Of a stretch of DNA of 64,000 nucleotides, positions 3,976 through 38,581 are shown one piece after another. The stretch covers positions 144,286 through 208,285 of the forward strand of contig JBGQBE010000001.1 in the NCBI GenBank assembly GCA_041494685.1. Reading direction: 5' to 3'. The notes under the pieces were generated by a model, which did not search any database, had not been told where the DNA came from, and was given only the letters and a program-made list of their open reading frames with translations. This DNA is from Dehalococcoidia bacterium (GTDB lineage: Bacteria; Chloroflexota; Dehalococcoidia; DSTF01; JACRBR01). Both the position numbers and the translations under genes were made by a program. Positions within the stretch are counted from its first letter, which is position 1. The number at the start of each line of letters is the position of its first letter.

Positions 3976-5124
3976 ATGAAGATCGCCATCGTGTACGACG
4001 CCCTGTTCCCGTACGTCAAAGGCGGCGGCGAACGCCGATACTACGAGCTTGCGCGCCGCCTCAGCGGCCGCCACGACGTGCACATGGTCTCCTGGCACTA
4101 CTGGCCGGGCCCGTCCCGCGCCGTCATCAACGGAATCACGCATCATGGCACCGGACGCCCCCCGGACTTCTACGGCGCGGACGGCCGCCGCCGCATCGCG
4201 GAGGCCGCCGCGTTTGCCGTGCGCGCGCTGCCGGTGCTGCTCCGCGAACGCTTCGACGTTATCGACTGCGCGTCGGTGCCGTTCCTGCCGCTCTTCAGCT
4301 CCGCGCTGGGCGTGCGCGTCCGTGGCGGCAAGCTGGTGGCGACCTGGTTCGAGTACTGGGACGACTACTGGCTGACCTACCGCGGCGGCGCGTCCGGACG
4401 CCTGGCGCGGCTGGCCGAGCGCACGTCCGCGCGGCTCGGCGCGGCGCAGATCGCCATCTCGCAGACGACGGCCGACCGCATGGCCGCGGGCCGGCCGACG
4501 CGCGCGCCGGTCAGCGTGATCGAGCCCGGCGTCGACCTCGACCGCATCCGCGCGGCGCACGCGCCGCCGAAGTCGAGCGACGTCGTCTTCGCCGGGCGCC
4601 TCAACGCGCAGAAGAACGTGTCGCTCTTGCTCGAAGCGGTCGCGCAGGCGGCACGCACGCCTGGCGCGTTCACCTGCACCATCATCGGCGACGGGCCGGA
4701 GCGCGCGCGCCTCGAGGCGCTGGCGCGGCGGCTCGGCGTGGCCGGCCGCGTGATCTTCCTCGGGCGCATCGAGGACGACGCAGCGTACTACTCGGCGATC
4801 AAGTCGGCGCGCGTGTTCGCATGGCCATCCGTCGCCGAAGGGTTCGGTCTCGCCCCGCTCGAGGCGATGGCGTGCGGCGTGCCCCCGGTGGTCGCCGCCT
4901 CCGACTTCAGCGCGACGGAGTCGCTCGTGCGCGACGGCGAGACCGGGCGCGTGGTCCCGGCGGATCCGGCGGCGTTCGCCGCGGCGATCCGCGGGCTGCT
5001 CGGTGACGCGAAGCTGATGCGTACGATGAGCGCGGCCGGGGGCGCCCGGGCGGAGCGATCCGGCTGGGACGCGATGGCGCGCGCCGTGGAGCGCGTCTAC
5101 GTCGAGACGGCCGGACGTGCGTAG
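3976..5124 (+). CDS. Glycosyltransferase family 4 (GT1/GT4 retaining GT)
   Basis: ORF 3949..5124. Start at MKIAIVYD. C-terminal EGFGLAPLEAMACGVPPV motif typical of GT4. Confidence 0.8.
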   Translation: MKIAIVYDALFPYVKGGGERRYYELARRLSGRHDVHMVSWHYWPGPSRAVINGITHHGTGRPPDFYGADGRRRIAEAAAFAVRALPVLLRERFDVIDCASVPFLPLFSSALGVRVRGGKLVATWFEYWDDYWLTYRGGASGRLARLAERTSARLGAAQIAISQTTADRMAAGRPTRAPVSVIEPGVDLDRIRAAHAPPKSSDVVFAGRLNAQKNVSLLLEAVAQAARTPGAFTCTIIGDGPERARLEALARRLGVAGRVIFLGRIEDDAAYYSAIKSARVFAWPSVAEGFGLAPLEAMACGVPPVVAASDFSATESLVRDGETGRVVPADPAAFAAAIRGLLGDAKLMRTMSAAGGARAERSGWDAMARAVERVYVETAGRA

Positions 5125-6146
5125 TCAGGCCGCCCGAGACAGCTCGGCCGCGCCGGGCTCGGCGCCGTGGACGGCGGAGCGCCGCGACAGGTAGACGTAC
5201 GCCGCCACGGCCATCAGCCCCAACGGCAGCATCACCGTCACCCGCACCAGCACCGCGACCGCCGTGCCACGCTCCAGGCCGACGCCGCACCAGCGCAGCA
5301 GCGCCGCCAGCGACCCGTCGCTGGAGCCGAGCCCCAGCGGCAACGGCCACCCGGCGAGCTGTGACACGCCGAACGCCAGCCACGCCTGTCCGAACGTGAT
5401 GCGGCCGCCGTGGACGGCGGCCACCAGCAGCCAGAACTGCAACGCCGCCGCGGCGAAGCTCAACACCGTCAGCAGCGACCATCCCGCGAGCAGACCGCGG
5501 TCCGTCAGCAGCCATCGCAGGCGACCCGCGGCGACCCGGAGCCTCGCCAGCGCGCGACGCACGATGCCGCCTCCAGCGTCTCCGTACGCGGCGGGCCGAT
5601 CCGGGATGAGCGCGCCGGCGATCGGCACCAGCGCGAGCGCTCCGATGGCGGTCGCAGCCACGGCCAGCGCCGCAACCAGCGGCAGCACCACGAATGCCGC
5701 GGCCGCGCACGTGCCCAGCGCCAGCAGCAACGCCGACAACCCGCGTTCGTAGAGGCCCAGCGCAAGGCCGTCCTCCACGGACGCGCCGGCGCGCGACAGC
5801 GCGGCCACGCGAAACAGCTCCCCCGACGACGCCGGAGAGAGCGAGCCCGCCACGCTTCCCAGGATCGCGCTCGCGAACACGAACCCCGCATCGGCGTCGA
5901 TGCCGAGCCGGCGCATCGCCAGCCGTGAGCGAAACGCGAAGAGCAGCGCGATCGCCACGTCGAGCGCGACGACCGCAGCCAGCAGGCGGAGGTTGGCGTG
6001 CGAGACGACGCCGCCCATCGCGGCGGCGTCCGACTTCCACAGCACAAGGGCGAAGAGCGCGACCGCGATGCCAAGCTGCAGCGCCCGGCCGGCGGCCAGG
6101 GCGCGGATGCGCCCGCCTCGCGCCGGTGTGAGCTGCGCGGCCACGC
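5125..6146 (-). CDS. Flippase-like / lysyl-PG-synthase-TM-like (UPF0104) polytopic membrane protein
   Basis: 3' part of ORF 5125..6561. The first 140 codons are an Arg-rich low-complexity artefact; the likely GTG start is ~6141-6147, immediately after the GT2 stop. 8-9 predicted TM helices. Confidence 0.55.
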
Positions 6147-7433
6147 CTACGCCGCCCGACGGTCGCGCGGCAGCGGCACCGGCTCTGCGCGGTCCGGCTC
6201 GGCGGCGCTCGCTGTGCCTTGCACCCCGCGGCGATCTTCCAGCAGGCTCGCGAGCGCGCCGACCAGTCCGACGTTCGCGCCGACGATGATCGACGCCTGG
6301 GCGATCGCCGCCAGGTCCAGCCGGCTGACGCCGGCGAACGCCACGAAGGCGATCGCCACGTTTAGCGCCAGCCCCGCGACGATGAGCACGCTGGCGATCA
6401 CGACGAAAGCCTCCAGACCGAGATAGCGGTGGTAGAAGCGCAGCACGGCGTCCTCGTTCGTGATGCCGCGCGCGGTCGTATAGAGCCGCGATGCGAATCC
6501 CAGCAGGAGCGCGTTCACACCCACGGTCAAGAAGATGCCGCCCGCGAAGACCGGCTGCCACGTCAGGTCTCCCGTCTGGATGCCGTGCGACGGGAGCGCC
6601 ATCGCAAGCGTGATGATGCCGAGCAGCGTCAGCGCAGCGCCCGGCAGCGTGAACAGGTAGTTGGGGCTGGCTAGCAGCAGGAATCGCAGGTGACGCCAGC
6701 CGTCGCGGACGGTGTTGAGCTTCGCCTCGCCGAGGCGCTCACCGTACGGCACCGGGATGTCCGCGACGCGCAGCCCGCGCCGCGCGGCCTTCAGCACCAT
6801 CTCGGACGCAAGCTCCATGCCGTCGGTGCCAAGCTCCAGGCGGTCGAGCGCCTCGCGCGTGAACGCGCGCAGTCCGCACTGGCTGTCGCCGACCTTCAAC
6901 CCCGTGAACACCTTCAGCAGCGCCGAGATCACGGGCGTGCCGATATAGCGGTGGCTCCACGTCATCGCACCCGGAGCGATGCCGCCGGAGAACCGGTTCC
7001 CGATCGACATGTCGTAGCCCTCAGCGAGCGGCGCCGTCAGCGGATCGAGATCGCTGAAGTCGTACGTGTCGTCACAGTCGCCCATGACGAGCCAGTCGCC
7101 GCGCGCCTCGTCGAAGCCGCGGCGCAGCGCCGAACCGTATCCCCGCCGCGACTCATGCACCACGCGCGCGCCCACCGCCGACGCGAGCTGCACCGAGCGG
7201 TCGGTTGAGCCGTTGTCCACGACGATCACCTCGCCCTCGTGGCCGCTGCGCGCGAGCCAGCCGAGCGCCTTCCGCACGCAGGCGACGACCGTCTGCTCCT
7301 CGTCCAGGCATGGCATGACGATCGAGATGTACGGGCGGCGCGCCGTAGCCGGATGCACCGGCGGTAGCCGCGGAATTTGTCGCGCTGAAGCCACTAGGCA
7401 TTGTCCTTCGCTGGCGTCGTGAGGTTCCCGCAT
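6147..7433 (-). CDS. GT2 polyprenyl-phosphate sugar synthase (DPM1/ArnC-like) with a C-terminal 4-TM domain
   Basis: ISIVMPCLDEE...VVDNGSTDRS...DCDDT motifs of GT-A family 2. C-terminal hydrophobic helices. The true start may lie downstream of 7433. Confidence 0.75.
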   Translation of the reverse strand: MREPHDASEGQCLVASARQIPRLPPVHPATARRPYISIVMPCLDEEQTVVACVRKALGWLARSGHEGEVIVVDNGSTDRSVQLASAVGARVVHESRRGYGSALRRGFDEARGDWLVMGDCDDTYDFSDLDPLTAPLAEGYDMSIGNRFSGGIAPGAMTWSHRYIGTPVISALLKVFTGLKVGDSQCGLRAFTREALDRLELGTDGMELASEMVLKAARRGLRVADIPVPYGERLGEAKLNTVRDGWRHLRFLLLASPNYLFTLPGAALTLLGIITLAMALPSHGIQTGDLTWQPVFAGGIFLTVGVNALLLGFASRLYTTARGITNEDAVLRFYHRYLGLEAFVVIASVLIVAGLALNVAIAFVAFAGVSRLDLAAIAQASIIVGANVGLVGALASLLEDRRGVQGTASAAEPDRAEPVPLPRDRRAA

Positions 7434-32855: not shown

Positions 32856-33257
32856 CTACGAACTACCCACTCCCAACTCGATCTCCCACCGTCCCGCGAA
32901 CCCGCTCCGCGACAGCGTGCCCTCCGCCGTCGCCGCGCCCGCCGCCGACTCGTAGCGGCCGCTGCCGCCGTCGATCTCGTAGCGCAGGCGCATCGTGTGG
33001 TCGGCGTCGCCGACCACGCCCTCCATCTCGGCCACGTCCCCCGCGACCAGCGTCCCGAACAGCTCGTCGCCGTCGCTCGCCGTCAGCGTGAGGTCGCCTT
33101 CGCCGGTGTTCTCCCGCAGCCCGATGTTCCACGTCACGCCGCCGACCAGCGTCCACGCCGCGTCCGCGCTCGCCCCCTCGATCGTCGCCGTGCGCGTGCC
33201 GTTGAGCAGCTCCTGCCACTCCACCACGTCGCCAGCGACTTCGATCTCGATCCGCAT
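32856..33257 (-). CDS. Hypothetical protein
   Basis: ORF 32856..33311, likely start MRIEIEV. No recognisable motif. Confidence 0.4.
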   Translation of the reverse strand: MRIEIEVAGDVVEWQELLNGTRTATIEGASADAAWTLVGGVTWNIGLRENTGEGDLTLTASDGDELFGTLVAGDVAEMEGVVGDADHTMRLRYEIDGGSGRYESAAGAATAEGTLSRSGFAGRWEIELGVGSS

Positions 33258-33328
33258 GTGCGCTGCTCCGGAAACGCGACGAGGCGGGCTCGCGCCCGCC
33301 TCAGTCGTCATTCGCTGCGTGCGGGCGG

Positions 33329-34291
33329 TTAGCCCTCGGCCTTGACCTTCTTCACCGCCGCGATGAACGCCGGCAGCACCGTCTTGTAGTCGCCCACGAT
33401 GCCGAACCGCGACGCCTTGAAGATGTTCGCATCGGCATCCTTGTTGATCGCCACGATGTTCTTCGATCCCGAGCAGCCCGCCATGTGCTGGCTCGCGCCC
33501 GAGATCGCCACCGCGATGTACAGCGTCGGGCTCACGACCTTGCCGGTCAGGCCCACCTGCTCGGACACGGGCCGCCAGCCCAGGTCCGCCACCGCGCGGC
33601 TCGCGCCGACGGCGCCGCCCAGCAGGTGCGCCAGTTCGGTGATACCCTCGAAGCCCTCCGGCCCGCCCAGTCCGCGGCCGCCGCTCACCACGACTTCCGC
33701 GTCTTCCAGCCGCACGCCTTCCGACGTCGCGACCTTGCGATCGATCACTTTGGTGCGGATGCCCGACAGGTCCACGTCCACCTTCTCGACCGCGCCGGCG
33801 CTGCCGCCCGCGGCCGCGTCCTGCGACTTCGGCCGCACCGTCGCCACCGCCGGCGTCCCGGCGAAGCTGTTGACCGCGCGCGCGGCGCCGCCGTACGCGG
33901 GGCGCGTCGTGTGCAGCTTGCCGCCCTGCATCTCCAGCGCGATCGTGTCCATCGCGACGGCGGTGCCCAGCTTGTACGCCAGCGCCGGCCCCAGGTCGCG
34001 CCCGATGTTCGTCTGGCCGAGCAGCACGACCGCCGGATCTGCCTTCCGCGCCACGGCCGCCGTCGCCAGCGAGAAGCCGTCGGTCGTGTACTGCGCCAGC
34101 GCCGCGTTGTCCACCACGTACGTCTTCTCGACGCCCGTGATCTTCGCCGCCGCAGCCTCCACGCCGGACCCGATCAGCATCGCCGACACCGGGCCGGCGT
34201 TCAGGCGCTGCGCCGCGCCGATGAGTTCGTTCGTGATCGCCACCACCTCGCCATCAGCGACCTCGGCGAGGATGAGTACTCCGTTTGCCAT
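33329..34291 (-). CDS. etfA: Electron transfer flavoprotein alpha subunit
   Basis: C-terminal FAD-binding region PELYIAVAISGASQHMAG. Confidence 0.9.
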   Translation of the reverse strand: MANGVLILAEVADGEVVAITNELIGAAQRLNAGPVSAMLIGSGVEAAAAKITGVEKTYVVDNAALAQYTTDGFSLATAAVARKADPAVVLLGQTNIGRDLGPALAYKLGTAVAMDTIALEMQGGKLHTTRPAYGGAARAVNSFAGTPAVATVRPKSQDAAAGGSAGAVEKVDVDLSGIRTKVIDRKVATSEGVRLEDAEVVVSGGRGLGGPEGFEGITELAHLLGGAVGASRAVADLGWRPVSEQVGLTGKVVSPTLYIAVAISGASQHMAGCSGSKNIVAINKDADANIFKASRFGIVGDYKTVLPAFIAAVKKVKAEG

Positions 34292-34349
34292 GTCGTTCGT
34301 TCTCCGTTCGTGCGCCGCGCGGCCCGAAAGCCGCGGCGCGGCTCCCCTG

Positions 34350-35144
34350 CTAGATCAGCTTGGCTTCCTGCAGGCGCCGCGCCAGCGCCATCGCCTGGTC
34401 TTCGGGCGTGTCGCCCTCCATGATCTCGACCTTCGTGTCCACCAGCGGCACGAAGAGCTTCTCCAGCGTCAGCCGCGGCGCCAGCGCGCCGGCGTCGACA
34501 CCCACGTCGCCCGCGCCCCAGATGTTCACCTGCTTCTTCGCCGCCGCCATGATCTGCTGCAGCTTCGGGTAGCGCGGCTCGCCCAGCTCGTTGCTCACCG
34601 TCACCACCGCCGGCAGCGACGATTCCACCGTCTCGTACGAGTCCGGCAGCACGCGCTCCACCGTGACGCTCGCGCCCGCGACCGTCACCGACTTCGCGAA
34701 GGTGACGACGGGTGTGCCGAGCATCTCCGCGATCAGCGTGCCGGTCACGCCCAGGTCCCAGTCCACCGCCTGCCGGCCCGTGAGCACCAGATCCACGTCG
34801 CCGAGCTTCTTGATAGCGGCGGAAAGCACCGTCGCAGTGCCCGTGCTGTCGAGGTCGTTGAACGCGTCATCGACCAGCAGCACGCCTTCGTCGCCGCCCA
34901 TCGCCAGGCCGTGCTTGATCACGTCGCGCGCGGTGGCCGCGCCGAGGCTCATGATCGTGACCTTGGTCTCGCCGCCGGCGTCCTTGATCCGCATCGCCGC
35001 TTCGACGGCGATCGCGTCGAACTGGCTGGGTACCGGCGCCACGCCGGGCGGCGGTACCACCTTCTTGGCCCCCTCATCGACCTTGAAGCTGGCCGGGGGA
35101 ATGTCCCAGTCGGGCACCTGTTTCACGCAGACAACAATATGCAA
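34350..35144 (-). CDS. etfB: Electron transfer flavoprotein beta subunit
   Basis: MHIVVCVKQVPD N-terminus. Confidence 0.9.
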   Translation of the reverse strand: MHIVVCVKQVPDWDIPPASFKVDEGAKKVVPPPGVAPVPSQFDAIAVEAAMRIKDAGGETKVTIMSLGAATARDVIKHGLAMGGDEGVLLVDDAFNDLDSTGTATVLSAAIKKLGDVDLVLTGRQAVDWDLGVTGTLIAEMLGTPVVTFAKSVTVAGASVTVERVLPDSYETVESSLPAVVTVSNELGEPRYPKLQQIMAAAKKQVNIWGAGDVGVDAGALAPRLTLEKLFVPLVDTKVEIMEGDTPEDQAMALARRLQEAKLI

Positions 35145-35397
35145 CGTCGTCCCTCCCTTTGGGCAGAATTGATTCTGAAGTTCATGGGTCAGGGGGCTGC
35201 CAGCAGCGGAGGCGCGATAGGCCCCTGAGGCCAGTCCAAGTTACAGGACGACCCCCCTTAGGTCTAGCAAATTTGCGCTTCGTCAAGCTGCCCCGCGGGC
35301 GCCCGGGGCGGAACTATGACGATTTCACCGTTACCCCCGCCGCCTTCCGGCCGATGTTCTAAGCAGGGGAACAGGTAGCAGGCCGCGACGACAGGGG

Positions 35398-36387
35398 GTG
35401 GATTCGTTGCGAAGTACGGAAACTACCGCCCTGCCCGGCAACGGCTGGCAGGGATTGATCTCGCGGCGCAGCTTCCGCGCGATGAACACGGACGTGCTCA
35501 TCGTGGCGGGCGGAGCACCACGCCCCGCGCTGCTCGACGCCGCCGAGCGCTTGTTCCGCGCCTACGAGGCGCGTTTCAGCCGCTTTCTCGCCGACAGCGA
35601 ACTCTCGGCGCTGAACCGCGCCGCCGGCGCCGGCGTGCCCGTCTCGCCGGAGATGCTCCGCATCCTTGACCGCGCTGTCGCGCTGCACCGGCGCACCGAC
35701 GGCGTGTTCGACCCGGCCATCCTGCCCGCCCTCGAGGCCGCGGGCTACGACCGCTCGTTCGAGCGCGTCGACCGCGACTGCGCCGCGATCCCGCGTGCGC
35801 CCGCGCGGAGCGGCTCGGTCGCGGACTTGCGGATCGACTACGCGCGGTCAGTCGTGAACGCGCCGGCACGCGTGCGTATCGATCTCGGCGGCATCGGCAA
35901 AGGCTTCACCGTCGATGCCGCGGCGGCCGTGCTCCGGCCGTGCGGCAACGCGCTGGTCGATGCCGGCGGCGACATCCACGCCTTCGGCGATGGCCCGGAC
36001 GGCGACGGCTGGCTGATCGGCGTCGGCGACCCGCTGGAGCCGTCGCGCCTGCTCGACCAGGTCTGGCTGCACGACGCGGCGCTCGCCACCTCCACCACCG
36101 CGGCGCGGCGCTGGCTGCGCGGCGGCGTCCTCCAGCATCACATCATCGATCCACGCACCGGGACGCCGGCCGAAACCAACGTCGTCTCCGTCACCGTACT
36201 CGCCGCGAGCGCGGTGGAGGCGGAGGTCCTCGCGAAATCGGCGCTCGTGCTGGGCTACGGCGAGGGGCGCGCACTGCTGGAGGCGCAGCACGCAGCGGGG
36301 CTGTTCGTGCTGGCCGGCGGCGGCGTACGCACCACCGACGACTGGCCCGGCGATGCGCATCACGCAGAAATGGAGCATCAGCTATGA
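35398..36387 (+). CDS. apbE: FAD:protein FMN transferase (flavin transferase ApbE)
   Basis: FRAMNTDVLI near the N-terminus. GGIGKGF motif. GTG start. Confidence 0.8.
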   Translation: MDSLRSTETTALPGNGWQGLISRRSFRAMNTDVLIVAGGAPRPALLDAAERLFRAYEARFSRFLADSELSALNRAAGAGVPVSPEMLRILDRAVALHRRTDGVFDPAILPALEAAGYDRSFERVDRDCAAIPRAPARSGSVADLRIDYARSVVNAPARVRIDLGGIGKGFTVDAAAAVLRPCGNALVDAGGDIHAFGDGPDGDGWLIGVGDPLEPSRLLDQVWLHDAALATSTTAARRWLRGGVLQHHIIDPRTGTPAETNVVSVTVLAASAVEAEVLAKSALVLGYGEGRALLEAQHAAGLFVLAGGGVRTTDDWPGDAHHAEMEHQL

Positions 36388-36560
36388 CACGCAGGATGGC
36401 GCTTGCCGTGGCCCTGGCGTTCACCACGATCGTCACGTTCAGCGTGGTGGTGTTCGGCGCACAGCACGGCGTATTCAACGATCCGAAGGCACCCGCGCAG
36501 CAGGCCGTCGCCGGCACGCCGGAGCCCGAAGCCACCGCTACGGAGGTCCCGCCGCCGACG
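36360..36560 (+). repeat. Tandem duplication unit 1 (5' end of a small membrane protein gene plus its RBS region)
   Basis: ~85% nucleotide identity to 36836..37040. Confidence 0.7.
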
Positions 36561-36779
36561 CCGCTCCCGCCGGTCGTGATCACGCGATACGTGTACATCG
36601 ACGACCCGGCGCCCGTATTGGCGGCCGCGGCGCGACCCTCCACCGCGGCCCCGCCGCCCGTTGCTTCGCCGACGACGACTCTACCGCCAGCAACGCCGCC
36701 GACGACGACTCCACCGACCGTGGCGCCGCGACCCGCGCCGGAGAGTTCGGAGCCCCACGAGGAAGAGGGGGACGACTGA
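36384..36779 (+). CDS. Small signal-anchored Pro/Thr-rich protein (paralog A)
   Basis: ATGA overlap with the apbE stop. MTRRMALAVALAFTTIVTFSVVVFGAQHGVF... N-terminal TM followed by a Pro-rich tail. Confidence 0.6.
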   Translation: MTRRMALAVALAFTTIVTFSVVVFGAQHGVFNDPKAPAQQAVAGTPEPEATATEVPPPTPLPPVVITRYVYIDDPAPVLAAAARPSTAAPPPVASPTTTLPPATPPTTTPPTVAPRPAPESSEPHEEEGDD

Positions 36780-36859
36780 CCTGCGATTCCTGACGAAGCG
36801 CTGGTCTTGGCGCTGGACGCGTCCGGACGCTTCGTCGCCACCGAAAGAGAGCATCGGCT

Positions 36860-37456
36860 ATGACACGCAGGATGGCGCTTGCCGCAGCGCTGGCGTTCAC
36901 GACCATCGTCACGTTCAGCGTGGTGGTGTTCGGCGCACAGCACGGCGTATTCAGCGATAAGAAGGCATCCAGGCAGGCCGTCGCCGAACCGCCGGCCGAT
37001 ACACCCGAGCCCGAAGCTACGGCCACGCGGGTCCCGCCGCCGGCGCCGCTCGCACCGGTCGTGCTGACACGATACGTCTACGTGGACGACCCGGCGCCCG
37101 AGGCCGCGGCTCCGCCGGCTGCTGCCGCCGCCGCAAGCCCGCCCACGGCGGCGCCCGCCGCGTCGCCGACGCGCGCCGCGTCGCCCACGGCGCAGCCTTC
37201 AGCAACGCCGACGACGCTGCCGCCGACGGCCACTCCCGCGGCGTCGGCTCCGGCACAGTCGCAGTCCACGGAGCTGGAGTTCGTCGGCACCGTCACGGCG
37301 ATCGACGGCAACGTGGTCACGTTCTCGCACGAAGGACAACTGACCGCCGTCCAGGTCGGCAACCCGTCGTCGCTCACTGTCGGCACCACGGCGCACGTGC
37401 ATGCGATCCTCAAGTCCGGCGCCTACGTCGCTACCGAGATCGAGGCAGGAGGCTAG
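36860..37456 (+). CDS. Signal-anchored Pro/Ala-rich protein with C-terminal beta-rich domain (paralog B)
   Basis: N-terminal 60 aa nearly identical to paralog A. C-terminal ELEFVGTVTAIDGNVVTF...AYVATEIE small beta domain. Confidence 0.65.
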   Translation: MTRRMALAAALAFTTIVTFSVVVFGAQHGVFSDKKASRQAVAEPPADTPEPEATATRVPPPAPLAPVVLTRYVYVDDPAPEAAAPPAAAAAASPPTAAPAASPTRAASPTAQPSATPTTLPPTATPAASAPAQSQSTELEFVGTVTAIDGNVVTFSHEGQLTAVQVGNPSSLTVGTTAHVHAILKSGAYVATEIEAGG

Positions 37457-37457
37457 G

Positions 37458-37970
37458 ATGCAATTCTTCACCAAGTTCCCGCGCACCAAGATCGTCACCA
37501 CCGGCGCGACGCTGTTCTCGCTGCTCGGCATCTGGGGCGTGCTGGCGTGGCCGGCGTGGATGGCGCCCGACAAATCGCACCCCGCAGACCCGCAGATCGC
37601 CGCGCTCCAGGCGCTGGCGAAGCTGCCTCCCGACCAGCTCGCCGCGCTGATGAAGCCCGCGCCCAAAGCGCCCGCTCCAGCCGCCGTCGCGCCGGCGCCG
37701 CAGGTGGTCGTGCAGCGCGTCATCGAGCAGGTCATCGTCGTACACCGCCAGGCCGCGTCGCCTGCGGGTGCGCCGCTGCCTGCCGGGGCGCCTCCGCCTG
37801 AAGCGCCGGTCGCCGCGCCGCCACCCGAAGCGCCCGCCGCGGCTCCGCCGCCACCCGCGCCCGCCCCTGCGCCTTCGGCGCCGCCGCCGGCCGCCGCGCC
37901 GCCGGCGCCCGCCCTCGCGCCCGCGCCCAAGCCGGCGCCCGCGCCGGCCACGATCACGAAGGCGTCGTGA
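37458..37970 (+). CDS. Signal-anchored Pro/Ala-rich repetitive protein
   Basis: GGAGG RBS. MQFFTKFPRTKIV N-terminus. PEAPxAAPPP repeats. Confidence 0.6.
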   Translation: MQFFTKFPRTKIVTTGATLFSLLGIWGVLAWPAWMAPDKSHPADPQIAALQALAKLPPDQLAALMKPAPKAPAPAAVAPAPQVVVQRVIEQVIVVHRQAASPAGAPLPAGAPPPEAPVAAPPPEAPAAAPPPPAPAPAPSAPPPAAAPPAPALAPAPKPAPAPATITKAS

Positions 37971-38581
37971 CGATCGTGGGGACGTTGGCGGCGATGCCCG
38001 ATATCTCGGCGCACATGTACTGGTACCTGGGCCGGTCCAGCGGCTTCGTCGCGTACTGGCTGCTCTTCTCGTCGGTCGCGATGGGCCTGGCCGTCAGCTC
38101 ACGCGTCTTCGATGGCGCCCTGGCGCGGCCCTGGGTGTTCGAGGTGCACAAGTTCCTGTCGGTCTTCGTAATGGTCGTGATGGTCTTCCACGCGCTCATC
38201 ATGCTGCCCGACCCGTACGCGAAGTTCACCATCGCCCAGCTGCTGGTACCGATGAAGTCGCACTACAAGAGCCTGGCGATGGCCGTCGGCATCGTCACGC
38301 TCTACACGTCGCTGCTGGTGACGCTGAGCTTCTACGCGAAGGGGCTGATCGGACAGAACGGCTGGCGCAGGCTGCACTACGTCACGTTCGCAGTCTTCAT
38401 CGGCGCGATGACGCACGGCGTCTTCGCCGGCACCGACGCCGCGAAGCCGTTCGTGCAGTACAGCTACCTCGCGTCCGGCGCGGCCGTGCTGTTCCTGACG
38501 TTCTTCCGCATCCTCGCGTCGCGCTCCGCCGCGCGCCCCGCCCGCGTGCGCGCCGTGCCGCCGCGCGCCGAGGCCGCATAG
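37967..38581 (+). CDS. Ferric-reductase-like transmembrane heme-b protein (MsrQ/YedZ-like FRD domain)
   Basis: GTG start in GTGA overlap with the preceding gene. 6 TM helices with conserved His pairs (HKF...H, HYVTF...H). Confidence 0.65.
   Translation: MTIVGTLAAMPDISAHMYWYLGRSSGFVAYWLLFSSVAMGLAVSSRVFDGALARPWVFEVHKFLSVFVMVVMVFHALIMLPDPYAKFTIAQLLVPMKSHYKSLAMAVGIVTLYTSLLVTLSFYAKGLIGQNGWRRLHYVTFAVFIGAMTHGVFAGTDAAKPFVQYSYLASGAAVLFLTFFRILASRSAARPARVRAVPPRAEAA

Follow-up and report, generated by a model that had tools for sequence, protein, structure and literature searches.

A conserved apbE-linked gene cassette of uncultured Chloroflexota as a candidate transmembrane electron-export module

ApbE-dependent flavinylation is a main bacterial route for wiring redox chemistry outside the cytoplasm, and to our knowledge every known ApbE substrate carries an [S/T]GA[S/T] motif inside a folded flavin-binding domain. 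What, then, could be the role of an apbE gene that is kept next to a set of membrane protein genes without any such domain? The question is raised by a locus in a stretch of 64,000 nucleotides (nt) from a Dehalococcoidia bacterium (assembly GCA_041494685.1, contig JBGQBE010000001.1, positions 144,286 to 208,285; hereafter the window, to which the coordinates below refer). Here apbE is followed by two paralogous genes for anchored Pro-rich proteins (parA and parB), a third small gene (P3) and a gene for a membrane protein of the ferric reductase domain type (FRD). Genomes with "orphan" apbE genes remain unexplained (PMC8238504), and this cassette is a widespread and conserved case of them in the abundant uncultured Chloroflexota of soils and sediments. 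We propose, as a reading with about even chances of being right, that apbE-parA-parB-P3-FRD is a transmembrane electron-export module of these microbes, probably an extracytoplasmic reductase, perhaps of metals.

Conservation of the cassette

The FRD sequence used as query retrieved 196 homologues in metagenome-assembled genomes (MAGs) and metagenomes. Scanning of the contigs gave 31 loci from genomes and 80 from metagenomes, whose architecture was read by tblastn and open reading frame (ORF) analysis. All the cassette loci belong to uncultured organisms, every named one being Chloroflexota, Chloroflexia or Dehalococcoidia, and the locus counts given here include near-duplicate metagenome contigs. 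What is conserved is a co-directional unit that starts with apbE, continues with one to three genes for anchored Pro-rich proteins and ends with P3 and FRD; in the form apbE-parA(/parB)-P3-FRD it was found in ca. 50 Chloroflexota/Dehalococcoidia loci. The apbE gene was present in 53 of the 62 loci with enough upstream DNA, often overlapping parA, and a ParA-type gene is conserved directly downstream of it. P3 was located directly upstream of nearly every FRD copy with readable upstream DNA, including the copies that have no apbE, and at least four MAGs had one of these apbE-less P3-FRD copies together with an apbE-linked copy on another contig. A distant apbE-FRD pair lacking the small genes (L032) was set aside, its FRD ORF being disrupted and not interpretable.

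The small ORFs are real genes, with high G+C at the third codon position and reading frames that are kept in dozens of loci. When P3 and ParB served as queries in word-index homology searches, they retrieved only 7 and 9 matches, respectively, because these are low-complexity sequences, and the families were gathered instead from the DNA adjoining the FRD homologues. No Pfam or NCBIfam model above threshold was found for the ParA, ParB or P3 families. As a side observation, each of the three families of cassette membrane proteins keeps its own last residues, -AA in FRD, -[A/G]S in P3 and -DD in ParA/B. One sub-clade (L014, L015 and L035, ORFs 4634-5359, 4899-5645 and 6048-6770) has in addition a fourth family of anchored Pro-rich proteins (MGKRLSIAMA...PTPINSGGSQVVP), located between apbE and the ParA-type gene.

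An earlier note on this DNA, made from the letters of the window, had described etfBA, apbE, the Pro-rich proteins and a heme membrane protein, with apbE coupled through an ATGA overlap to small anchored proteins and the last of these through GTGA to FRD. All these genes are there, as judged from Pfam, the ORFs and the overlaps, both of which are visible in the sequence. The conservation in relatives bears the description out, since apbE, the Pro-rich single-pass proteins (kept as ORFs) and the di-heme FRD make up a conserved, co-directional and partly translationally coupled cassette. Such an organisation fits a membrane electron-transfer module. The membrane-spanning electron conduit that the note had proposed agrees with this part of the evidence; the donor that it had assigned to the conduit, a cytoplasmic electron-transfer flavoprotein (ETF) encoded by etfBA, does not hold up equally well.

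ETF is a cytoplasmic one-electron carrier, the FRD of the cassette comes without an encoded donor, and etfBA is divergently adjacent to the cassette in the window and in ca. 10 related loci, so that a route from cytoplasmic ETF through FRD to a flavinylated extracellular partner has some appeal. However, the adjacency is limited to those ca. 10 among the 57 loci of at least 5 kb (L002-L009, L011, where only etfB is seen before the contig end, L013 and L039). All of them are close relatives that share a wider synteny (LigD, a 151-aa ORF and a LOG-family gene), and the distant cassettes have unrelated flanking genes. Besides, etfBA and the cassette lie on opposite strands. The EtfAB proteins are clear members of ETF, with the ETF and ETF_alpha domains, and their closest solved relative, 5OW0, is an ordinary ETF. 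Because etfBA is adjacent only in the nearest relatives, a link from ETF to FRD is not supported, and we consider this route highly unlikely.

FRD and the tethered proteins that accompany it

The putative heme ligands of FRD are His61/His75 and His137/His150 (codons at 38147, 38189, 38375 and 38414), with 13 and 12 residues between the members of each pair. NOX and FRE proteins have this defining His spacing in their bis-heme ferric-reductase domain. H61, H75, H137 and H150 are invariant among 29 FRD homologues, and so is H16, which belongs to a conserved H16-x-YWYLGR motif predicted on the outer side. A profile of the family run against all PDB sequences matched only the NOX of Streptococcus pneumoniae (SpNOX), with an E-value of 0.66 and all four His aligned. 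The AlphaFold2 (AF2) model (predicted local distance difference test, pLDDT, 84) had as best PDB folds SpNOX 8QT6 (probability 1.0, TM-score 0.54) and STEAP2 7TAI (probability 0.98), although with weak Foldseek E-values (0.02). In Pfam, Ferric_reduct (PF01794) gave 16.1 bits for the FRD of the window, against a threshold of 28. The 29 homologues showed 15 weak Ferric_reduct and 16 Ni_hydr_CYTB matches, and one remote relative (P0164) passed the Ferric_reduct threshold with 35.2 bits. The description as a di-heme protein with this domain agrees with the four invariant His and with the fold but not with the PF01794 score, and the six transmembrane (TM) helices that had been assigned to it are five in our prediction, many relatives having an extra N-terminal sixth. 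These features point to a two-heme cytochrome b of the NOX/STEAP/MsrQ superfamily, the heme itself being predicted.

Within this superfamily, FRD might act as a subunit of the MsrQ type and supply electrons to an MsrP-like periplasmic molybdoenzyme whose gene is elsewhere. One FRD homologue from JGI is annotated as YedZ, and the H-x-x-x-x-x-GR motif before the first TM helix resembles that of YedZ. However, FRD had no match in NCBIfam, MsrQ models included, so that it cannot be recognised as an MsrQ. It has all four heme His, no Oxidored_molyb/msrP gene was found within 8-10 kb on either side in four annotated loci (the window among them), and the constant partner of FRD is P3 instead. The earlier note had named a grouping with MsrQ, together with a nearby msrP, as evidence against its own proposal. 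We find an MsrQ-type role extremely unlikely.

The wider FRD family is large (376 representatives at E<=1e-30 and 2544 at E<=1e-10 in an exhaustive profile search) and its remote members are informative about orientation. One of them (P0166) has a Fer2 (2Fe-2S) domain and a Pyr_redox_2 NAD(P)H reductase fused to the C-terminus of FRD, and others (P0145-P0181) have a signal peptide and a secreted domain of 150-220 residues before the first FRD helix, which in P0150 and P0181 carries DDEHEDDEHED-type inserts that resemble the tails of ParA. Because remote relatives fuse either a secreted N-terminal domain or a C-terminal reductase, they support a topology in which the N-terminus of FRD would be outside and its basic C-terminus inside, with electrons flowing outward. 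The fusions would also link FRD functionally to acidic/His-rich extracytoplasmic segments. Fusions of P3 with FRD were looked for among the longer homologues and none was found, the long forms having an extra N-terminal TM helix, a Pro-rich C-tail, a secreted N-domain or a C-terminal reductase. The FRD of the window ends in ...PRAEAA (38561-38578) and its close clade in -[K/E/N]-A-A, an ssrA-like -AA.

ParA and ParB are, as the earlier note had recognised, duplicated Pro-rich signal-anchored proteins, with 79% identity over their first 78 residues. At the DNA level, 36367-36500 and 36843-36976 form a direct repeat of 134 nt with 90% identity that includes the 17 nt before the ATG and falls to ca. 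70% further in, which suggests a recent duplication or a gene conversion that keeps the anchors alike. The 55 members of the family that we examined follow the same plan, M-x-R-R-x-A-L-A, a hydrophobic anchor, a G-x-F-G boundary, VVIT-x-YVY-x-D and a Pro/Ala/Thr linker. Among the 50 distinct N-termini, 47 have RR and 41 fit RR.[FGAVML][LITMVF], followed by a long and quite hydrophobic h-region, so that this end may be a twin-arginine translocation (Tat) signal or an anchor. The twin Arg of the window proteins (36384-36400 and 36860-36876) contrasts with Lys in P3. In the ParA of the window the anchor (MTRRMALA...) is followed by the beta motif VVITRYVYIDD (36573-36605), a Pro/Ala/Thr linker and the tail ...EPHEEEGDD (36741-36776); ParB has the same anchor and beta motif and then a domain with an oligonucleotide/oligosaccharide-binding (OB) fold at residues 138-197 (37271-37453).

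The family as a whole ends in these two ways, i.e., in a tail rich in Asp, Glu and His (31 of the 55 members, e.g., HEHEHEHEYEYEY and HETEEPHETQEPHET, with -DD as the usual C-terminus and HE/HD repeats in the ParA tails) or in a small beta domain that is often followed by -DD. The compact beta-rich C-terminal domain that had been noticed in ParB was modelled by AF2 as a five-strand beta structure with a pLDDT of ca. 95, which Foldseek places among the RPA-type OB folds, with CusF/SilF (TM-score 0.62-0.68, best target coverage), HypC and CcmE. One strand carries an H-V-H (37394-37405) that is kept in close relatives. DUF5666 (PF18914), for which the earlier note had suggested a search, matched ParB over the whole model (E 9e-4) but with 19.9 bits, below its threshold of 27. 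NCBIfam matches to ExtJ (E 0.04) and GltJ were taken as compositional or marginal. Judging from composition and model, ParA and ParB probably bind a metal ion or a mineral.

P3, the constant companion of FRD, has a very strictly kept C-terminus. Its 74 distinct sequences share M-x-x-x-T-K-F-x-R-T-K, one TM helix ending in L-A-W-P-x-W, V-V-V-x-R-x-V-V-V-H-R, a tether with ca. 49% Pro+Ala and the terminal consensus P-x-P-V-T-[T/K/R]-[T/S]-[R/K]-[A/G]-S. In the window this becomes MQFFTKFPRTK, a helix ending in LAWPAW, the beta motif VVVQRVIEQVIVVHR (37704-37748), a Pro/Ala tether and the end PAPATITKAS (37938-37967). The last residue is Ser in 74/74 sequences, position -3 is Thr or Ser in 74/74, position -1 Ala or Gly in 70/74 and position -2 Arg or Lys in 58/74. 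The conservation could have been a by-product of the Shine-Dalgarno (SD) sequence and start codon of FRD overlapping the end of P3. This was ruled out, given that four different codons are used for the final Ser (TCG, TCC, TCA and AGC) and that in many loci FRD starts 10-90 nt downstream with an SD of its own; the same facts indicate that the terminus is selected at the protein level. It is the only invariant motif in the cassette that contains Ser or Thr. A subgroup of P3 sequences (L054-L056, L058 and L076, with C-termini PCPKKISVACSRGS / NCPNKTPMACSRPS) has a pair of Cys, separated by eight residues, immediately ahead of the terminal motif, possibly a disulfide or a metal site, and is paired with long ParB-like proteins ending in ...PTGADGSWVAVSVKE.

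The ApbE of the cassette and its candidate target

The ApbE of the window scores far above the Pfam threshold (PF02424, 25.6 bits; Table 1) over residues 29-298, starting with AMNTDV at 35479. We aligned it to Ftp of Treponema pallidum, TM1553 of Thermotoga maritima and a canonical ApbE encoded at locus L030. In T. pallidum numbering (where the catalytic His is H256, equivalent to H257 of Vibrio cholerae), the window protein and its relatives keep K165 (GIGKG), S240 (ATS), R245 (RR) and H256 (HHIIDPRTG). The Mg ligand T288 is replaced by Lys in the window (EAEVLAK, 36217-36237, residues 274-280) and in 19 of the 19 cassette ApbE with a readable motif, which have [E/D]-A-[D/E]-V-[F/Y/L]-A-K versus the canonical D-A-L-S-T; the distant outlier L032 has Val. 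We refer to this divergent form as K-type. E244 is lost across the cassette ApbE (Ala, Lys or Ser; Ala in the window), D284 has become Glu in the window and in L036, and the N55/Y60 position is an aromatic Phe, as in the forms that retain flavin adenine dinucleotide (FAD). The canonical ApbE of L030 retains T288, E244 and D284. In T. pallidum Ftp, the T288A and D284A changes abolish FAD pyrophosphatase activity and D284A also abolishes transfer of flavin mononucleotide (FMN) (PMC4436053).

No signal peptide or hydrophobic N-terminus was found on the ApbE of the window or of ca. 45 relatives, even when translated back to the preceding stop. The maximal 15-residue hydropathy upstream of the domain is -0.16 in the window, where the ORF cannot extend upstream of 35398, and at most 1.63 in the relatives. 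A cytoplasmic ApbE lacking signal or anchor had been named in the earlier note as evidence against its own proposal, and in terms of sequence this is what we see. The canonical ApbE of L030 is also signal-less though it adjoins a TM-anchored FMN_bind protein whose target domain is predicted outside, so the missing signal does not prove a cytoplasmic target; it looks like a trait of the lineage.

With these features ApbE could also be a cytoplasmic FAD-holding protein and not a transferase, docked on FRD as an electron-entry module in place of the fused FAD/NAD(P)H domain of NOX-type proteins. The absence of a signal peptide at every locus and the clade-wide loss of T288 (to Lys) and E244, with D284 changed to Glu in the window, would agree with this, and so would the activities lost in the T. 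pallidum T288A and D284A mutants, the Phe of the FAD-retaining type, a cassette without canonical flavinylation target and an FRD that lacks the fused reductase seen in P0166. However, the catalytic His (HHIIDPRTG), S240, K165 and R245 are conserved, which suggests that the chemistry is retained. Furthermore, we know of no ApbE-family protein that works as a redox carrier, and the paralogous P3-FRD copies without apbE would be left with no entry module. An FAD-holding role is in our opinion decidedly unlikely.

Where would a transferase of this type place its flavin? Known ApbE substrates have D-x-x-[S/T]-G-A-[S/T] within FMN_bind, NqrB/RnfD, DUF2271 or DUF3570 domains (PMC8238504, PMC12052999). 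According to Pfam, FMN_bind (PF04205) is absent from the cassette of the window and from those of its relatives, and no [S/T]GA[S/T] is conserved in ParA/B (0/56) or FRD (0/115), so the earlier statement that no canonical flavinylation motif is evident holds for the cassette at large. The only [S/T]GA[S/T] in the small proteins of the window, TTGAT in P3 (37497-37511), was discarded as a site, being located at the boundary of cytoplasm and TM helix and not conserved in homologues.

Outside the cassette, EtfA has SGASQH (33485-33502), an exact [S/T]GA[S/T] that deviates from the usual G-I-S-G-A-I-Q-H signature, and it could be argued that the signal-less ApbE flavinylates Ser267 in this FAD-binding signature in the cytoplasm, the membrane genes being unrelated. 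It is the only exact motif in a real neighbouring gene, EtfA is cytoplasmic, the signature loop of ETF contacts the flavin, and SGASQH is kept in all 10 cassette-adjacent EtfA. But the solved ETF of Geobacter metallireducens (5OW0) has the same SGASQH with its flavin in the ordinary ETF position, which makes the motif a subfamily trait and led us to downgrade it as an ApbE target. In addition, etf is missing from most cassette loci, the EtfA motif has no Asp at -6 and ETF binds FAD, not FMN. Flavinylation of EtfA is thus extremely improbable.

This leaves the Ser that ends P3 as the strongest single candidate for the flavinylation site. The terminus matches the D-x-x-[S/T]-G-A-[S/T] core at -3, -1 and 0 (three of four positions), and three P3 sequences end exactly in [S/T]GAS. 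It is known that ApbE needs no more than a tag of 7 residues, the last of them being the one modified, and that such a tag works best at a protein terminus. The tag tolerates D-to-A, and G-to-A and A-to-V halve the yield (PMC12052999). Locus L030 provides a comparison within a single contig, in which the K-type ApbE with its cassette is found ca. 2.5-3 kb away from a canonical ApbE module (L030 7617-11925) formed by a TM-anchored FMN_bind protein with HVSGAT, a canonical signal-less ApbE and an NqrB/RnfD-like protein. Because the canonical enzyme is paired with the SGAT of FMN_bind and the K-type with P3, the type of ApbE and the type of motif change together. We advance, as a tentative proposal that is itself rather unlikely, that the K-type ApbE puts FMN on the free C-terminal Ser of P3, i.e., a natural "flavin tag" on a Pro-rich leash of 100-150 residues beside a two-heme cytochrome.

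A different way to account for the data would be that FRD, P3 and ParA/B are an envelope system for metal reduction or homeostasis, possibly under the control of an extracytoplasmic function (ECF) sigma factor, with apbE merely co-transcribed and its target elsewhere, e.g., an FMN_bind or NqrB-like protein. The commonest non-cassette neighbour is indeed an ECF sigma factor (16 of the 57 loci of at least 5 kb), followed in the loci examined by an anti-sigma-like membrane protein, which in L030 has a clear DUF5666 and an acidic/His tail like that of ParA. The module with FMN_bind and NqrB/RnfD-like proteins near the L030 cassette, and the existence of P3-FRD pairs without apbE, are also in favour. 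Set against this, a canonical ApbE already goes with the FMN_bind module of L030, the K-type gene is tightly linked to the cassette in the same direction in 53/62 loci, often overlapping parA, and the active-site changes of this ApbE argue for a dedicated and different substrate. We consider a target elsewhere quite unlikely. The sigma factor and anti-sigma-like TM protein are directly downstream of FRD in L030, L099-L102, L106, L025, L028, L029, L078, L020 and L012; no such ECF sigma factor was found within the window.

Going back to electron export, the cassette would work as follows. FRD would be reduced from the cytoplasmic side, by menaquinol or a soluble reductase, and would pass the electrons through its two hemes to the outer face. 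P3 would be its obligatory small partner, with one TM helix, a Pro-rich tether of 100-150 residues and the terminal [S/T]-[R/K]-[A/G]-Ser, and the divergent, signal-less ApbE would most likely attach FMN to a non-canonical site, for which this Ser is the candidate. ParA and ParB, anchored by their twin-arginine ends, would display the Asp/Glu/His tail or the CusF-like OB fold with its H-x-H at the cell surface on Pro-rich tethers. The tethered flavin could be reduced by the outer heme, with the H-x-YWY-L-G-R face as a possible docking place, and then carry the electrons over to metal ions or minerals bound to the acidic/His tails of ParA and ParB. The net result would be that an acceptor outside the cytoplasm is reduced, most likely Fe(III) or Cu(II). 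With ApbE in the cytoplasm, P3 would be flavinylated before the unfolded tail is exported, and the cell could do without an FAD exporter. This order of events is speculative, and so is the alternative that ApbE is exported together with the twin-arginine ParA, the gene of which overlaps apbE at its end.

Several points weigh against this reading. The cassette encodes no electron donor. There are P3-FRD pairs without a nearby apbE (L019-L027), and in two of these MAGs (L026 and L027) no apbE-linked copy was found. The motif of P3 has Arg or Lys in place of the canonical Gly and no Asp at -6, and Ser, the residue of P3, is modified less well than Thr by known ApbEs (PMC12052999). ApbE may be no transferase at all, given that the Mg ligand T288 is missing from it and that the T. 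pallidum enzyme with T288A shows no FAD pyrophosphatase activity. The lack of an export signal on ApbE is at odds with a P3 tail predicted outside, so that P3 would need to receive its flavin before being exported, unless ApbE reaches the outside in some other way. Metal binding by ParA/B is predicted from composition and fold. Finally, the AF2 model of FRD contains a doubtful continuous helix (102-154), probably mis-modelled, and its Foldseek E-values are weak.

If the proposal for P3 is true, it would define a new class of ApbE substrate, a terminal peptide without a flavin-binding domain, and a new subclass of the enzyme, in which Lys takes the place of a Mg ligand and a basic residue comes from the substrate. 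More generally, four features come together in the cassette: its ApbE belongs to a signal-less clade in which the metal site is altered, a flavin-binding domain is missing, the tethered proteins form three families without annotation, and the di-heme carrier has no encoded donor. It could reveal a new type of flavinylation substrate, and it could show how the reaction is arranged with a cytoplasmic ApbE and by what means monoderm or atypical envelopes send electrons out or reduce metals. The terminal motif of P3, if functional, would make a useful orthogonal flavin tag.

The locus and its relation to known systems

The features of the locus are listed in Table 1. The window has a G+C content of ca. 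70%. The NCBI gene call for apbE begins at 35407. An upstream ATG (37401) was rejected as the start of P3, and a GGAGG is found within the last codons of parB, ahead of the P3 start. The intergenic region between etfB and apbE contained no sigma-70-like consensus and no Rfam match (e.g., an FMN riboswitch), and over 32.5-39.5 kb no sigma-70-type promoter, no convincing terminator and no Rfam match were found. A LOG-family gene is convergent with the cassette, downstream of it, and beyond etfA there are LigD and the conserved 151-aa ORF (32856-33311, minus strand, between etfA and LigD), which has 40-61% identity in related loci, where it is immediately downstream of etfA, and no Pfam or NCBIfam match. 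The window also matches a second Chloroflexota MAG (GCA_041478795.1, contig JBGOWU010000023.1). Its ParB is 100% identical to that of a 208-kb contig present in NCBI and JGI (P0128) and differs by 2 residues from the copy on an NCBI contig of 47.8 kb (L001), so there are at least two assemblies of very close strains.

Table 1. Coordinates of the cassette and of the adjacent etf genes in the window.
Feature	Position	Strand	Length or spacing	Remarks
etfA	33329-34291	-		Pfam ETF E 4e-35, ETF_alpha E 2e-31
etfB	34350-35144	-		ETF; divergent from apbE
etfB-apbE intergenic region	35145-35397		253 nt	Divergent; presumed site of the cassette promoter
apbE	35398-36387	+		Pfam ApbE 202 bits, E 1.7e-59; signal-less, divergent K-type
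parA	36384-36779	+	131 aa	ATGA overlap with the apbE stop
parB	36860-37456	+	198 aa	parA paralogue with C-terminal OB fold
P3	37458-37970	+	170 aa	1-nt gap after the parB stop
FRD	37967-38581	+	204 aa	GTG start overlaps the P3 stop (GTGA)

We found no description of this cassette in the literature searched, and its parts resemble several known systems to different degrees. FRD shares with NOX, SpNOX, STEAP and FRE proteins the His-x13-His plus His-x12-His motif and the fold (8QT6, 7TAI), and these proteins send electrons outward to O2 or metal ions, the same direction that we propose for FRD. However, FRD has no fused FAD/NAD(P)H dehydrogenase domain, has 5 TM helices here and is only marginally similar in sequence (SpNOX profile E 0.66). 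NOX2 requires a small partner with a Pro-rich tail (p22phox), to which the likeness of P3 is an analogy only. The combination of an N-terminal anchor and a rigid Pro-rich spacer in ParA, ParB and P3 is that of TonB-type proteins. The end of ParB has in common with CusF/SilF a small OB fold but no sequence homology, and the Met/Trp ligands of CusF are absent, with H-V-H in ParB instead.

Regarding the enzyme, the ApbE of the cassette shares with the canonical ApbE/Ftp proteins (V. cholerae, T. pallidum, Listeria FmnB) the Pfam domain, the FAD-binding core and the His of HHIIDPxTG, but it lacks their lipoprotein signal, has Lys for Thr288, has lost Glu244, has Glu for Asp284 in the window and has no canonical target motif nearby. 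We know of no natural flavinylation site at a protein terminus. The engineered "Flavin-tag" (Tong et al. 2021, as described in PMC12052999), in which a short terminal peptide ending in the modified Ser/Thr suffices for ApbE, would have its natural counterpart in the P3 terminus, although that tag is given there as DxxSGAT and P3 ends in [S/T]-[R/K]-[A/G]-S without the Asp. A signal-less ApbE is also found in Klebsiella pneumoniae, where the cytoplasmic enzyme acts on the product of a neighbouring gene, a soluble fumarate reductase with a normal FMN_bind domain and motif (PMC12052999), whereas the partners in the cassette are membrane proteins with domains predicted outside.

The closest described kind to the cassette is the MsrQ-like flavinylation-associated cluster (PMC8238504). 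For these "MsrQ-like systems", in which PF01794 proteins cluster with apbE, a role as iron reductases has previously been put forward (Meheust et al. 2021, eLife, PMC8238504). The cassette would function in the manner of these systems, and of NOX/STEAP reductases. Both have apbE and a two-heme membrane protein (PF01794, with about six TM helices, in the MsrQ-like clusters) for transmembrane electron transfer. The MsrQ-like clusters are, however, mostly actinobacterial, are defined by PF01794, a threshold that the FRD of the cassette does not reach, and were chosen because ApbE or its target has a signal peptide or a lipobox, while the cassette ApbE is signal-less. They include an FMN_bind protein and often an NAD domain, neither of which is found in the cassette, which has three novel Pro-rich proteins instead of the FMN_bind subunit. 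The cassette departs from these systems in that FMN_bind, the canonical motif and the signal are all missing and the metal site of ApbE is altered, and in adding three unannotated families.

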